A DNA stretch of 64,000 bases from an uncultured Actinomycetes bacterium (GCA_963809465.1 CAWEJU010000015.1:398295-462294), one strand, 5' to 3'. Counted from the first letter of the stretch, positions 2 to 22,371 are shown. Notes: generated from the sequence alone by a model not told the origin. Program-made: numbers and translations.

Positions 2-586
2 CTCTACTTGATCCTCGACGGCGACGACGCGCACGTGTTGGAGCCGGCGCTCCGCGGCGGCGTCGACGTCGTCCAGCTGCGCGACAAAGCGCGGACGGAC
101 GAGGAGATCGTCAGCGCGGCGACGCCGTTCCGGGAGGCGTGCGAGCGGCACGACGCGCTCTTCGTCCTCAACGACCGCCCCGACCTGGTGGAGGCCTGCG
201 GCGCGCACGGCGTCCACATCGGCCAGGAAGACGAGCCACTTGCGAAGGCGCGCGAGCTCGCCGGGCCGGAGCGGGTCGTCGGGCTCTCGGCGACCACCGT
301 CGAGGAGCTGGAGGCCGGCGATCCCGACTACTGGGGCGTCGGCGCGATCTTCGGCACGCCGACGAAGCTGGAGTCTCCGCCCGGCGGCCTGGAGCTCGTC
401 CGCGCCGCGGCCGCGCGGCTGACCGTGCCGTGGTTCGCGATCGGCGGCGTGGAGCTGCACAACGCGGCCGAGGTCGTCGCCGCGGGCGCGCCCGGGCTCG
501 CGGTCGTGCGCGCGATCCGCGACGCGGACGATCCGGAGCAGGCTGCGCGCGCGCTGCGCCATGCGCTAGGCGATCGGCAGGAGTAG
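2..586 (+). CDS. thiE: thiamine-phosphate synthase, 5' end cut by window edge
   Basis: The ORF is open to position 1. The translation has VDVVQLRDK, GVHIGQED, GTPTK and WFAIGG motifs typical of ThiE. Confidence 0.85.
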   Translation, partial: LYLILDGDDAHVLEPALRGGVDVVQLRDKARTDEEIVSAATPFREACERHDALFVLNDRPDLVEACGAHGVHIGQEDEPLAKARELAGPERVVGLSATTVEELEAGDPDYWGVGAIFGTPTKLESPPGGLELVRAAAARLTVPWFAIGGVELHNAAEVVAAGAPGLAVVRAIRDADDPEQAARALRHALGDRQE

Positions 587-967
587 GTCGATCTCGTCGA
601 GCCGCCGGTACCACTCGAGACTCGGCCGGCTCGTGTCGGGCGCGTGCTCTGCGACGAGCTCGCCGAACGTCGGGCCGATCCGCTCGTAGACGGCGGGCGG
701 CTCGCCACGCAGGCGGGCGCGGAGGTAGCGGCCGCCGGGCAGCGTGCCGGACTCGAGCCCCGGAACGAGCTCGTCTCCCTCTCGCACTTCGACGCAGGCG
801 CGGTAGTCGTCGGCGACCGGGTCGAAGGCGCCGTAGAAGTGGCGGCCTCGCAGCGCAACGACGGCTTCGAGCTCGTCCCAGGCCCGGCGGATGTGCTCGA
901 TTCCATCCGGGACGCGGACGAACTGCACTGCGATCTCCTCGCGCTCGACCTCAGTGAACTCGCTCAT
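566..967 (-). CDS. GyrI-like (SbmC-type) effector-binding domain protein
   Basis: 133-aa ORF with a GyrI-like pattern (HFYGAF..YRACVEV..LPGGRYLRARLRG..LEWY). Its ATG overlaps the TGA of the upstream ORF (ATGA at 964-967). Confidence 0.6.
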   Translation of the reverse strand: MSEFTEVEREEIAVQFVRVPDGIEHIRRAWDELEAVVALRGRHFYGAFDPVADDYRACVEVREGDELVPGLESGTLPGGRYLRARLRGEPPAVYERIGPTFGELVAEHAPDTSRPSLEWYRRLDEIDLLLPIA

Positions 968-1296
968 GCGCCACGCTGGAGATACCAGCCGCCGCTTGCG
1001 CCGTCGTGGAAGACAACCGTGTTCTCACCGCTCTCGAGCACGAGCTCGAAGTAGCGACGGGCGACCGGCTCCTCGGTCCACCACCGGTCGACGACGCGCC
1101 ACTCCTCCCGTACGAGTGCCACGGCGCGGTGGTTCACCTCGAGCGGCGTGCCGGTAGGGCTCGCCTCGACCCGCGCGGCCCGCGGCGCGTTGAAGCGCGC
1201 GACTACTCGTCCTTCGGCACCAGCAAAGCCCGCGATTGGAGCATGGGGGAACCCATGGTTCCCCCATGGGCCCCCTCCTTCTGGCTGTAGAGTCAC
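964..1296 (-). CDS. small DUF6504-like protein coupled to the imuB-like gene
   Basis: The C-terminus EEWRVVDRWWTEEPVARRYFELVLESG..VVFHD..GGWYLQR resembles the domain I recall as DUF6504, found next to or fused with ImuB-like proteins. GTG 1296 overlaps the imuB-like TGA (GTGA). The start is uncertain. Confidence 0.5.
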   Translation of the reverse strand: MTLQPEGGGPWGNHGFPHAPIAGFAGAEGRVVARFNAPRAARVEASPTGTPLEVNHRAVALVREEWRVVDRWWTEEPVARRYFELVLESGENTVVFHDGASGGWYLQRGA

Positions 1297-2474
1297 TCGT
1301 CTTTCGGCACGAGCAACGCGCGACTCTCTGGAACGCGCGACCAAGGAGCCACCTCCACGACGGTGCAGACGGAGCCGGAGCCGGTGCTCGCCCGCACCTG
1401 GCGCAGCCCGTCCCGCAGACGGGCGCGGTCCTCGGCGCCGGCTGCGAGGAGCTCGAGCTGGTGGCCGGTCGGCTCGGTCAGCTCGACGAGCTCGAGCCGG
1501 AGCGCGACGACCGGCGCCGGCAGCTCGGCGAGTCGCGGCGAGAGCGCGATGCGGATCCGGTCGGGATCGCCGCTCGGCTCGCGCAGGGTCAGCGTCCGTC
1601 GCCACGAGCTGCCGCTTTCGAGCTGGGCGGCGAGCGCGACTTTGCGGACGAAGCGGTCGCGCCGCTCGGGCCGCGCGAGCGCGGTGTCGATAAGGCCCGC
1701 CAGGGCACGCCTCAGCGTCAGCTCGTTGCCGACCGCCTCCGGGAACTCGAGCGAGGCCGCGACGACGGCGGGTGGGCGCCGGCCGCGCACACGCGCGGCC
1801 GTTCCACCTCTCGCCAGGCCCCAGGCGCGCCGGCCGTCCGGCCCCAAACGTTCGGCGACGGCGCCACCCGGGAGCCCGGCAAGCTGTCCCAGCTTTCGCA
1901 CTCCCAGTGCCTCGAGCTCCTCGTAGCGCCCGCGCTCGAGCGGGAGGAGCGTGAGCGGCAGAGGGGCGAGAAACTGCGGCAGCTCCTCGTCGGCGACCAC
2001 GACCACCTGCCCGGGTCGCGCGACCGAAGCTGCCGCGAGTGCTGCGAAGCGCCGGCCGGCCGCGCCGATGCGCGCGTCCCACTCCGTCCCGACTGCCGCG
2101 AGCGCCCGCCGCAGTGCCGGCTCGAGGCCGCCGTAGAGCCGCTCGACTCCCCGCGTCTCGAAGTACGCAACGCCGAGCGAGGCAGGCTCGACGGAGAAGC
2201 CCGCGTCCTCGAGCGCGTGCAGGATCTCCTCCCAGCCGCGCTCGGCACCGGCCGCGTCGGGCTCGACGAGTGCGAGCGACGGGCACGTGGCGAGCGCCTC
2301 CCCCAGCCGCATCCCCGGCCGCACGCCCGCGGTCTCGGCGGCCGCGGTCACCGGCCCGATCAGCGGCTCGCCCTGCGGCTCGGGCGCGAGCGCCGCCGGG
2401 CGCAGCGCGAGCGTCGGCGTCCGCCGGAGCGCCGCCTTCAACTCGAGTCCTGGAATGGCGAGACAAGCGATCAT
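1293..2474 (-). CDS. imuB: ImuB-like Y-family DNA polymerase homologue
   Basis: 393-aa ORF with Y-family/ImuB-like architecture. The N-terminus MIACLAIPGLELKAAL lacks the acidic DinB-type start. Two LexA boxes lie directly upstream. Confidence 0.7.
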   Translation of the reverse strand: MIACLAIPGLELKAALRRTPTLALRPAALAPEPQGEPLIGPVTAAAETAGVRPGMRLGEALATCPSLALVEPDAAGAERGWEEILHALEDAGFSVEPASLGVAYFETRGVERLYGGLEPALRRALAAVGTEWDARIGAAGRRFAALAAASVARPGQVVVVADEELPQFLAPLPLTLLPLERGRYEELEALGVRKLGQLAGLPGGAVAERLGPDGRRAWGLARGGTAARVRGRRPPAVVAASLEFPEAVGNELTLRRALAGLIDTALARPERRDRFVRKVALAAQLESGSSWRRTLTLREPSGDPDRIRIALSPRLAELPAPVVALRLELVELTEPTGHQLELLAAGAEDRARLRDGLRQVRASTGSGSVCTVVEVAPWSRVPESRALLVPKDE

Positions 2475-2476
2475 GG

Positions 2477-2505
2477 GAACGTATGTTCTACACGAACGCC
2501 TGTTC
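2477..2505. promoter_or_regulatory. tandem LexA (SOS) boxes GAACGTATGTTC and GAACGCCTGTTC
   Basis: Two GAAC-N4-GTTC palindromes at 2477-2488 and 2494-2505. They lie 2 and 19 nt upstream of the imuB-like ATG, in a 72-bp divergent intergenic region. Confidence 0.75.
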
Positions 2506-2514
2506 CCCTGTCAA
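2485..2514 (-). promoter_or_regulatory. putative imuB-like promoter (-35 TTGACA, 18-nt spacer, -10 TAGAAC)
   Basis: On the minus strand, TTGACA lies at 2514-2509 and TAGAAC at 2490-2485, 10 nt before the ATG at 2474. Both LexA boxes overlap this promoter. Confidence 0.5.
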
Positions 2515-2546: not shown

Positions 2547-3125
2547 ATGGCCGAGGAAGCACGCCTGGACGAAGTCGGCTCGGGGCTCGCGCCCGTCTCT
2601 CCGGGCTGGTTCGTCGTCAACGTCGGCGAGGCGGCCTGGCTGCGGAACGACGCGTTCGGCGGCCGCTGCGTCTTCGAGAGCAGCCGGCGCGTGCTCGCCG
2701 AGCGGCCGGAGGCCGAGCCGCAGATGTTCACCGACACGGGCTTCACGCTCGCCGTGCTCGAGCCCGGCAAGCCCTCGGGCATGTTCCACGCTGAATCCGC
2801 GCAGGAGGACTTCCTTGTTCTCACCGGCTCCTGCCTGCTGATCGTTGAGGACGAGGAGCGGGAGCTCCGCGCGTGGGACTTCGTCCATTGCCCCGCCGGA
2901 ACTCGCCACACGTTCGTGGGCACCGGCGCCGGGCCGTGCGTGCTGTTCATGACCGGCGCCCGCCGTGAGGGCAAGACGATCGTCTACCCGGTCGCCGAGC
3001 ACGCGCTCGCCCGGGAAGCCGGTGTCGAAGCGGAGACGACCGAGCCGAGGGAGGCGTATGCGCCGTTCGGGCACTGGCGCCTCGGACGGCCGGACGCCTG
3101 GTCCGAGCTGCCGTGGGCAGGATGA
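2547..3125 (+). CDS. cupin domain protein (paralogue of 27454-28020)
   Basis: ATG preceded by GGAG. The motifs WFVVN..EDFLVLTG..LIVEDEERELRAWDFVHCPAGTRHTFVG are shared with the second cupin. Confidence 0.7.
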   Translation: MAEEARLDEVGSGLAPVSPGWFVVNVGEAAWLRNDAFGGRCVFESSRRVLAERPEAEPQMFTDTGFTLAVLEPGKPSGMFHAESAQEDFLVLTGSCLLIVEDEERELRAWDFVHCPAGTRHTFVGTGAGPCVLFMTGARREGKTIVYPVAEHALAREAGVEAETTEPREAYAPFGHWRLGRPDAWSELPWAG

Positions 3126-21603: not shown

Positions 21604-22371
21604 TCAGTGTTGCGAGGTGAATGTCTCGCGGTAGCGGCCGAAGAACGTCGTCTCCGGCAGTGTCGCGAGCAGGCTCCGCTGCTCGCCGAGCCGGATCGAC
21701 AGCGCCCCGTCGGGCTGGAGGTCGCCGCTCCGATGCCCGTCGGCAAGGACGGCGGCGCCGACGTCCGGGGTCGCGTTCCGCACCATCAGCTCCGCGCCGC
21801 GCGGCACGACGAGCGGCCGCGCATCGAGCGAGTGCGGCGCGATGAACGTGATCGCCATCGCGTCGAGCCCACGCACGAGGACGGGGCCGCCGTTCGAGAG
21901 GTTGTAGGCCGTCGAGCCCGACGGCGTCGAGCAGATCATCCCGTCGCACGAGACGACGCCGAGGTCCTCGCCGGCGATCGCCCAGCCGAGCTCGATCATC
22001 CTCCCCAGCGTCGAGCTCGTGACCACGACGTCGTTGACGGCCACGAAGCCGTCGCCGTCGAGCTGGGCCTCGAGCGTGGGCTGCTCGATCGTCCGGTACT
22101 CGCCGGCGAAGACCCGCGCGAGGTCGACCTCGAGCCGTTCCGGCGCGATCGAGGCGAGGAAGCCGACTCGGCCGAAGTTGATCCCGATCACGGGAACGCC
22201 CGTTCCGAGCAGCCGCGAGAGCGTCCGGAGGATCGTCCCGTCGCCGCCCACCGCGACCGCGAGCTGCGCGCGCTCCGGCTCGTCGACGAGCTGCACGCCG
22301 GCGCCTTCCGCGACCGCCCGCACCCGTGCCACGGCATCGCGCACGTCGACGCGGCCGTGGGCGACGAGCAT
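21604..22371 (-). CDS. nadK: NAD+ kinase
   Basis: GGDGT.LR..GINFGRVGFL..TPSGSTAYNLS motifs. The start is set at the ATG just after the tlyA stop. Confidence 0.9.
   Translation of the reverse strand: MLVAHGRVDVRDAVARVRAVAEGAGVQLVDEPERAQLAVAVGGDGTILRTLSRLLGTGVPVIGINFGRVGFLASIAPERLEVDLARVFAGEYRTIEQPTLEAQLDGDGFVAVNDVVVTSSTLGRMIELGWAIAGEDLGVVSCDGMICSTPSGSTAYNLSNGGPVLVRGLDAMAITFIAPHSLDARPLVVPRGAELMVRNATPDVGAAVLADGHRSGDLQPDGALSIRLGEQRSLLATLPETTFFGRYRETFTSQH

Follow-up and report, generated by a model that had tools for sequence, protein, structure and literature searches.

A probable LexA-repressed split-ImuB translesion-synthesis cassette with a GyrI-like third gene in an uncultured Gaiellaceae bacterium

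In its canonical form, represented by Mycobacterium tuberculosis and Pseudomonas aeruginosa, the SOS mutagenesis cassette comprises ImuA or ImuA', an ImuB protein serving as an inactive Y-family scaffold with clamp-binding and RecA-NT motifs, and DnaE2 as the catalytic polymerase. The C-terminal domain of ImuB, ImuB-C, and its stand-alone forms were defined by Aravind et al. (PMC3765255); the domain is a β-barrel of novel fold (PMC12926913) and, in published AlphaFold models, holds the PHP domain of DnaE2. Operons in which a stand-alone ImuB-C is joined by an inactive Y-family polymerase and DnaE2, with no ImuA, were described by Timinskas and Venclovas (Nucleic Acids Research 2019; PMC6511836), with RecA proposed to bind, instead of ImuA, to the motif resembling RecA-NT, and a 2026 survey in the same journal names this system DnaE2X-iPolY-ImuB-C-RecA, or “split ImuB” (PMC12926913). 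Here we consider a stretch of 64,000 nucleotides from an uncultured bacterium (hereafter the window, within which all coordinates are counted), whose region 566-2514 is in all likelihood the promoter-proximal part of a LexA-repressed split-ImuB translesion-synthesis cassette from the Gaiellaceae (Thermoleophilia, Actinomycetota). For another member of the Thermoleophilia, Conexibacter woesei, a supplementary table of the 2026 survey, as its columns read, marks DnaE2X (PMC12926913).

When considered as a whole, the operon is an ordinary further example of the split-ImuB SOS mutasome family, from an uncultured soil Gaiellaceae bacterium, with two local peculiarities: the addition of a GyrI-like gene, which is the sole modestly new element, and the breaking up of the operon by thiE. 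Its control region and three open reading frames (ORFs) are laid out as follows.

2509-2514, minus strand: -35 hexamer TTGACA, read from the sequence, at a fixed distance from LexA box 1 in relatives
2494-2505: LexA box 1, within the promoter spacer, reading GAACAGGCGTTC on the minus strand; a motif match at a conserved position
2485-2490, minus strand: putative weak -10 hexamer TAGAAC, tentatively assigned, 18 nucleotides past the -35 hexamer
2477-2488: LexA box 2, GAACATACGTTC on the minus strand, overlapping the putative -10 and ending 2 nucleotides before the start codon
1293-2474, minus strand: ORF1, iPolY, a predicted inactive Y-family polymerase of 393 amino acids equivalent to ImuB minus its C-terminal domain; Pfam IMS and IMS_C
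964-1344, minus strand: ORF2, the ImuB-C gene, with start TTG 1344 (the ancestral position, after GGAGGTGG) giving 126 amino acids, or alternatively GTG 1296 giving 110
566-967, minus strand: ORF3, a GyrI-like/Cass2 protein of 133 amino acids with predicted small-molecule binding, joined to imuB-C by an ATGA overlap

The first gene had been described from the sequence alone as ImuB-like and devoid of the catalytic acidic motif of DinB, and both points are borne out. Its product falls far below every NCBIfam cut-off for Pol IV, and in comparison with Escherichia coli DinB the catalytic SLDEAY (D103/E104) is changed to SLGVAY (G/V) and the N-terminal HVDMD to LAIPG. Because the catalytic residues of DinB are replaced, the enzyme would be dead, and this predicted inactivity is a hallmark of ImuB. 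Against the published iPolY ACZ39475 (iPolY-wE2X) of Sphaerobacter thermophilus, the full length of the ORF1 product aligns with 40% identity (E 6e-66), the comparison sequences from this species having been taken from the supplement of PMC12926913. The match is co-linear and includes the VVEV-PWSR-PE-R tail (VVEVEPWSRIPERRRAL vs VVEVAPWSRVPESRALL). Within the tail of the window protein, QLELL occupies the position of the clamp motif and aligns by eye with QHRGLF of Pseudomonas ImuB and HQETLF of the S. thermophilus iPolY, and LRDGLRQVRASTGSGSVCTVVEV is RecA-NT-like. The tail is co-linear with the RecA-NT region of ImuB, and the best alignment of its motif LRDGLRQVRASTGSGSVCT to E. coli RecA falls at residues 10-29, the expected place (E 0.14); a PDB sequence search with the tail returned nothing meaningful.

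For the second gene, neither Pfam (DUF6504 included, even at E<=10) nor NCBIfam gives a match, a PDB sequence search finds nothing meaningful, and searching plasmids by tblastn with ORF2 or with a fused homologue finds no match. It has 2775 close homologues and 826 clusters at 50% identity, which bear the NCBI name “hypothetical protein [Gaiellaceae bacterium]”. The assignment comes from other comparisons. One relative of 525 amino acids (P0239) has IMS and IMS_C followed by the ORF2-type domain at its extreme C-terminus. Moreover, a profile of 40 sequences of the ORF2 family aligns to residues 411-468 of a 471-residue ImuB from a Pseudomonas plasmid (hhalign probability 94.5%, E 8e-8), with which the family shares a WW...RR-Y...G...W-Q signature, and the plasmid imuB itself sits between an annotated imuA and an “error-prone DNA polymerase”. 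The published ImuB-C ACZ39476 of S. thermophilus and the ORF2 product share 39% identity (BLASTP, E 2e-16). The AlphaFold2 model of ORF2 is a confident six-stranded all-β structure with a predicted local distance difference test (pLDDT) score of 87.7 and has no neighbour among PDB folds (best E 1.2), in agreement with ImuB-C as a β-barrel of novel fold (PMC12926913). Judged on these grounds, the ORF2 product is a stand-alone ImuB-C domain. Its earlier description as DUF6504-like holds at the superfamily level, as the Pfam DUF6504 profile (PF20114) matches the published stand-alone ImuB-C ACV58046 with 25.4 bits against a cut-off of 24.2 and the ORF2 family aligns to ACV58046 in register, if weakly (E 0.004); at the level of the protein itself it fails, PF20114 being silent on ORF2. 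Pfam thus names the first (IMS/IMS_C) and third (GyrI-like/Cass2) proteins of the operon and leaves the second without a match.

Relatives of the operon were found by scanning one genome per GTDB species, which yielded at least 562 of them; the 80 best consist entirely of metagenome-assembled genomes (MAGs) of the Gaiellaceae, Gaiellales or Thermoleophilia. Gene content was mapped by a tblastn matrix over 82 related loci with about 20 kb around each, numbered so that low L numbers denote closer relatives of the window and high numbers more distant ones. In all 80 related species-level loci iPolY and imuB-C are adjacent, the proteins being mostly of 393-394 and 96 amino acids, respectively. In 73 of the 82 loci, imuB-C is followed downstream, on the same strand, by a gene for a DnaE2 homologue of about 1070 amino acids, at distances from 5 nucleotides to 5.8 kb, and the other nine loci end no more than 2.6 kb past imuB-C. 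Among the most distant relatives dnaE2 follows imuB-C directly, after 5, 11 and 22 nucleotides in L070, L066 and L078, and in L001-L064 thiE plus up to about 5 kb of other genes stand between the operon and dnaE2, secreted-protein genes and a small cupin having also been taken into the interposed region. A related contig of 1.86 Mb illustrates the full arrangement: iPolY (393 amino acids), ImuB-C (97), a Cass2/GyrI-like protein (132), thiE on the opposite strand and then a PHP/Pol III-alpha protein of 1068 amino acids, whose best annotated matches are named “error-prone DNA polymerase”. The window is cut off within this same order of genes, its left end being occupied by one further feature.

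8-586, plus strand: thiE, thiamine-phosphate synthase, 5' end off the window, convergent with the operon; Pfam TMP-TENI, NCBIfam thiE

The dnaE2 gene of this genome therefore almost certainly lies just beyond the left window edge, as the order in relatives suggests. The preliminary description had stressed that neither imuA nor dnaE2 is adjacent: for imuA this stands, tblastn having found no ImuA, RecA or LexA homologue in the 64-kb window or in the 82 loci, whereas the missing dnaE2 is an artefact of the window edge, the gene being found beyond thiE in relatives.

The distribution of operators around dnaE2 agrees with this picture. It is the most informative of the results: in the 19 loci with dnaE2 within 1.1 kb of imuB-C the gene lacks a separate box, and among the 54 loci with intervening genes, 52 have a LexA box dedicated to dnaE2. 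Such a pattern would be expected if insertions had split an ancestral iPolY-imuB-C-dnaE2 operon under LexA and left both halves under SOS control, and the second operator where dnaE2 is detached supports iPolY, ImuB-C and DnaE2 as one SOS-controlled unit. In the closest relatives (L003, 13720-14106, and about 30 other loci) the box lies some 386-398 nucleotides upstream of dnaE2, the gap being filled by an opposite-strand gene for a 113-residue cupin that starts 11 nucleotides from the dnaE2 start; because the cupin fills this gap, SOS-driven transcription of dnaE2 would run antisense through it.

The promoter in front of iPolY is compact. On the minus strand its order is TTGACA (2514-2509), ggg, GAACaggcGTTC (2505-2494), gtgTA, GAACatacGTTC (2488-2477), cc and the ATG at 2474. 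The two GAAC-N4-GTTC boxes reported at first sight are present and perfect, and the motif is that of LexA sites in Bacillus subtilis and M. tuberculosis and extends to Gram-positive bacteria, Actinobacteria among them (PMC3323433). Within the window the count is weak evidence of enrichment, with 3 sites against 0.82 expected, two of them the adjacent operon boxes, and at least 3 reached in 4 of 100 shuffles. Comparison is far more telling: among 71 species-level loci with upstream sequence, both boxes are perfect in 68, and in these 68 the starts of the boxes are 17 nucleotides apart in 59, box 2 ends 2 nucleotides before ATG or GTG in 61, TAGAAC is invariant (68/68) and TTGACA is found in 61, with TTGACG or TTGACT in 6 more. 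The N4 spacers vary among loci, both half-sites of each box being kept, and upstream of the -35 hexamer the loci have no evident similarity; given the dissimilarity of that upstream sequence, the persistence of the tandem layout in 68 of 71 loci places the boxes beyond chance. In 1.2 Mb of loci there are 199 perfect boxes, of which 143 are at the iPolY promoter and about 50 ahead of dnaE2, with about 15 expected in total. The promoter is accordingly predicted to be of LexA type and SOS-like, bound by LexA and induced by damage. Since no Shine-Dalgarno sequence is seen before the iPolY ATG and only about 10 nucleotides separate the putative -10 from the start codon, the operon mRNA is probably leaderless or near-leaderless.

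Set beside the split-ImuB system of the Kyrpidia tusciae/S. thermophilus type, the locus and its relatives share a dead Y-family polymerase followed by a separate ImuB-C, the lack of a nearby ImuA, the linkage of DnaE2 in relatives, and identities of 40% and 39% to the S. thermophilus pair with a conserved C-tail. They differ in that the operon of the Gaiellaceae subclade is broken up, with a GyrI-like gene after imuB-C and with an opposite-strand thiE and up to about 5 kb separating a dnaE2 that carries its own LexA box; in addition, the window has a 90-nucleotide in-frame insertion at the iPolY/imuB-C junction. With the canonical cassette the locus has in common predicted SOS/LexA control, an inactive Y-family scaffold in which the clamp and RecA-NT motifs are putative, the ImuB-C domain (the profile aligning to the canonical ImuB C-terminus) and, going by relatives, DnaE2 as the catalytic polymerase, whereas two polypeptides here make up ImuB, their genes overlapping by about 52 nucleotides in relatives, and no imuA or imuA' leads the operon or lies nearby, the upstream neighbour of iPolY being a divergent cupin gene. 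The Geobacter sulfurreducens operon lexA-imuB-C-polY (PMC6511836) likewise has a stand-alone ImuB-C co-transcribed with a Y-family polymerase and is damage-induced; in contrast, its Y-family polymerase is active, DnaE2 takes no part and lexA belongs to the operon.

The third gene is GyrI-like, as first described: its product passes the Pfam cut-offs for GyrI-like (PF06445; 28.8 bits vs 26) and Cass2 (27.6 vs 27), and NCBI names its homologues “GyrI-like domain-containing protein”. Foldseek matches of its model (pLDDT 75) comprise STM3175 (albicidin resistance), the ligand domains of BmrR and BrlR, SAV2435, Cass2, SbmC (1jyh), Rob, CtaZ and the Lin2189 hydrolase, with E values from 1e-5 to 5e-3 (best 1.5e-5), 13-21% identity, a probability of 1.0 and template-modelling (TM) scores of 0.6-0.75. 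It therefore has the fold of SbmC/GyrI, of STM3175/AlbA-type proteins, of CtaZ, the BmrR C-domain, Cass2 and Lin2189, and differs from SbmC and its kin by this low identity and by its shorter length. As in E. coli sbmC, a GyrI-like gene stands under a LexA-type promoter (PMC10886550), although the window gene is the third in a translesion-synthesis operon and sbmC is a single SOS gene. The parallel drawn earlier with the E. coli gene is nonetheless legitimate, because gyrI/sbmC is SOS-induced and protective against DNA-damaging agents (PMC10886550) and some GyrI-like proteins hydrolyse DNA-alkylating cyclopropanoids (PMC5684135).

With respect to distribution, the GyrI-like gene is found in 33 of the 73 loci, none of them outside the closest 38. 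L007, L018, L026, L035 and L036 lack it or have it in decayed form, with decayed remnants in L007 and L018, and tblastn does not find it in L039-L082, which include the 35 most distant loci reaching dnaE2. The conservation of the three genes as a neighbourhood consequently holds in the closest Gaiellaceae subclade and not beyond it, only the iPolY and imuB-C pair persisting throughout. Where the gene is kept, its ATGA coupling to imuB-C is maintained in the close clade, and conservation of the protein amounts to 82-94% among many species-level relatives, 59 columns being invariant. Going by these comparisons, the GyrI-like gene was added to the operon in one lineage, has been lost there repeatedly and does not belong to the conserved cassette. 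Its role can only be guessed at: it might bind genotoxins under SOS induction, modulate gyrase or be a mere passenger.

Several other readings deserve to be weighed. The preliminary description had envisaged a different damage-response module, that is, an SOS module without DnaE2 in which the dead Y-family polymerase and the DUF6504-like and GyrI-like proteins act together, for instance by modulating gyrase or replication. The absence of dnaE2 from the 64-kb window, the translational chaining of the three genes, the retention of the GyrI-like gene in 33 loci and the SOS induction of E. coli GyrI/SbmC (PMC10886550) would all fit such a module. Yet every one of the 73 related loci of sufficient reach has a linked dnaE2, which follows imuB-C at once in the three distant loci named above, the GyrI-like gene is missing from L039-L082 and missing or decayed in five closer loci, and the window stops in thiE, the very gene that precedes dnaE2 in relatives. 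We consider this module very improbable, and the claim gives way to the published split-ImuB system, in which iPolY and ImuB-C work with DnaE2 (PMC6511836; PMC12926913). Even harder to sustain is the notion that the boxes are operators of a non-LexA regulator or mere promoter elements and that the operon escapes SOS control. The window does lack a lexA gene, and since box 2 is overlapped by the -10, part of its conservation could stem from promoter function; however, both half-sites of both boxes are conserved around variable spacers, CGAAC-N4-GTTCG recurs ahead of dnaE2 exactly where dnaE2 has become detached, the motif is an established Gram-positive LexA site (PMC3323433), and homologous cassettes elsewhere are LexA-regulated (PMC6511836).

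For the GyrI-like protein the choice is wider. It could itself be an SOS effector, sequestering or hydrolysing a genotoxin such as a gyrase poison or DNA alkylator, or binding gyrase as SbmC does, and recruited for LexA control without being a mutasome subunit. Its fold matches those of the gyrase-poison protectors STM3175 (albicidin), CtaZ (closthioamide) and SbmC, as well as the cyclopropanoid hydrolase Lin2189 (PMC5684135; PMC10414762), and its start remains coupled to imuB-C in the close clade; the identity to every characterised member is only 13-21%, however, the model is of moderate confidence and the gene was repeatedly lost among close relatives, so that we hold such an effector quite conceivable, if a little more doubtful than probable. 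A neutral passenger, inserted between imuB-C and thiE and doing no more than sharing the transcript, would account for the patchy distribution in one lineage and the decayed remnants, and thiE, genes for secreted proteins and a small cupin have entered the same region. The conservation of the protein, with its invariant columns, and the maintained start/stop overlap with imuB-C nevertheless argue for purifying selection, and a passenger seems rather unlikely. A genuine damage-response partner, recruited as a coupled third gene in one Gaiellaceae sublineage, is to our mind an outside prospect. If true, the protein could restrain gyrase, or sequester or hydrolyse a gyrase poison or a genotoxin from the soil, during lesion bypass by the mutasome, which would amount to an independent reinvention of SOS-controlled SbmC/GyrI in the Actinomycetota.

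Returning to the LexA-repressed split-ImuB cassette, a number of points weigh against it and are best taken together. The split-ImuB system has been defined computationally, and no member has been studied by experiment. In this genome dnaE2 is not visible, the window ending in thiE; exact look-ups with the proteins of the window and a scan of metagenome contigs for exact 45-nucleotide matches, aimed at sequence further to the left, retrieved nothing. The absence of ImuA covers the window and about 20 kb around each related locus rather than whole genomes. The RecA-NT alignment of the iPolY tail is without statistical significance. As for control, the earlier claim that the boxes overlap a TTGACA/TAGAAC promoter is right about the hexamers, yet a consensus promoter scanner calls no promoter at 2485-2514; the -10 is non-consensus, and the scanner misses it because TAGAAC lacks the final T. 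Finally, tblastn finds no lexA or recA homologue in the window, which is why the regulator is named from the motif alone.

Under the split-ImuB interpretation, LexA bound at the operon promoter would block RNA polymerase, because the two tandem operators lie between the -35 hexamer and the start codon. DNA damage would then lead, through RecA-stimulated cleavage of LexA, to the release of a near-leaderless tricistronic mRNA. The dead Y-family polymerase, which keeps thumb and little-finger regions, the clamp-binding-type QLELL and the RecA-NT-like motif, would serve as the scaffold, and the separate ImuB-C β-barrel would contact the PHP domain of DnaE2, RecA presumably replacing ImuA. DnaE2, the catalytic partner, would be encoded a few kilobases downstream, past the opposite-strand thiE and outside the window, under what is a LexA box of its own in relatives, and the GyrI-like protein, a putative small-molecule binder, would be an addition of this sublineage only.

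The comparison extends the split-ImuB mutasomes, a group defined by computation, to the Gaiellaceae/Gaiellales, a large clade of uncultured soil bacteria (at least 562 GTDB species; 826 ImuB-C clusters at 50% identity). It also provides unusually clean comparative evidence on how such a cassette is regulated, with a tandem LexA operator on a near-leaderless promoter and a second operator when dnaE2 is detached. The GyrI-like addition is a minor but testable lead, and claims of a “missing partner” at a window edge need to be checked against synteny in relatives.

The junction between iPolY and imuB-C diverges from that of most relatives, in which imuB-C starts about 52 nucleotides ahead of the iPolY stop, in the -1 frame, after the ancestral start context given above. 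The three ORFs of the window are chained by the GTGA (1293-1296) and ATGA (964-967) overlaps already pointed out in the preliminary description; ORF1 and ORF2 are in separate frames, the stop being at 1293-1295, and the conserved β-barrel core of ORF2 spans about 964-1194. Stop and core are set apart by an additional element.

1203-1292, minus strand: in-frame insertion of 90 nucleotides between the iPolY stop and the ImuB-C core

The insertion contains a Shine-Dalgarno-like GAAGGAGG, the palindrome CATGGGGGAACC-ATG-GGTTCCCCCATG (1242-1268, a perfect 12-bp stem) and a degenerate second copy of the overlap segment; in other words, a duplicated segment of 51 nucleotides plus about 60 nucleotides with GAAGGAGG and the palindrome. 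The same junction element occurs in L007, L018, L030 and L033 with 111 or 114 nucleotides. All lengths being multiples of three, TTG 1344 can still read through to a 126-residue protein, and the start of ORF2 may thus be TTG 1344, at the ancestral position, instead of GTG 1296. The insertion-encoded motif EGGG..GNHGFP is also N-terminal in the more distant ImuB-C proteins P0122, P0124 and P0125. As a known RNA element the palindrome was rejected, the only Rfam match being a sub-threshold chance hit to HIV_FS2 (E 0.5) and the fold z-score only -1.28; as a high-copy repeat it was likewise dismissed, occurring once in the window and, in the loci, almost only at the junction.

Although the overlap puts imuB-C in the -1 frame, programmed -1 frameshifting to a full-length ImuB was discarded as well, no slippery heptamer being seen. 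Fused iPolY-ImuB-C ORFs of 469-473 amino acids (protein P0287) are found only in L005, L011, L059 and L080; they are most likely assembly indels, because long-read “MFD” MAGs are the source of all four and three already have a shifted frame upstream of the tail. One indel within the overlap would recreate a full-length ImuB.

The 3' ends of the GyrI-like gene and thiE overlap by 21 nucleotides (566-586), and no terminator-like hairpin was found between the two genes. At the other end of the operon lies a divergently transcribed gene.

2547-3125, plus strand: cupin gene (Pfam Cupin_2), sharing a 72-nucleotide control region (2475-2546) with the operon and not a conserved part of the cassette

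This gene starts merely 32 nucleotides past the -35 hexamer, after the Shine-Dalgarno sequence AAAGGAGC; at so short a distance its promoter must overlap both LexA boxes, and the cupin may be co-repressed with the operon. It was rejected as a conserved partner, being upstream of iPolY in only about 16 close loci.

The third perfect GAAC-N4-GTTC of the window (22194-22205, GAACGCCCGTTC) is apparently within a minus-strand gene encoding a GGDGT-type kinase motif and is probably a chance site. Another possible variant of the cassette is found on the megaplasmid of Thermomicrobium roseum (NC_011961; L084, 1703-7168), the best annotated DnaE2 match, where a “recombinase A”, a hypothetical protein of 416 amino acids and an error-prone polymerase form a cassette; the 416-residue protein is weakly iPolY-like and its C-terminus faintly ImuB-C-like (hhalign E 0.003).

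An insertion sequence (IS) element resembling IS1595, not present in the window, sits exactly at the -35 hexamer of the iPolY promoter in four related loci (L005, 5228-8793; L018, 4772-8614; L058, 6112-8794; L070, 6354-8460). These elements have terminal inverted repeats GG(G/T)AACTATCCC... and a transposase of about 320 amino acids, L018 also holding a nested IS110-type gene. The 8-bp target duplications differ per locus (CCCAGTTT, AGCTTGAC, CAGTTGAC and GACCTTGA) and regenerate TTGAC, and the elements look like independent hot-spot insertions. The repeat in L058 contains TTGACAGGACAGGTGTTCGA, which is similar to the promoter and operator.

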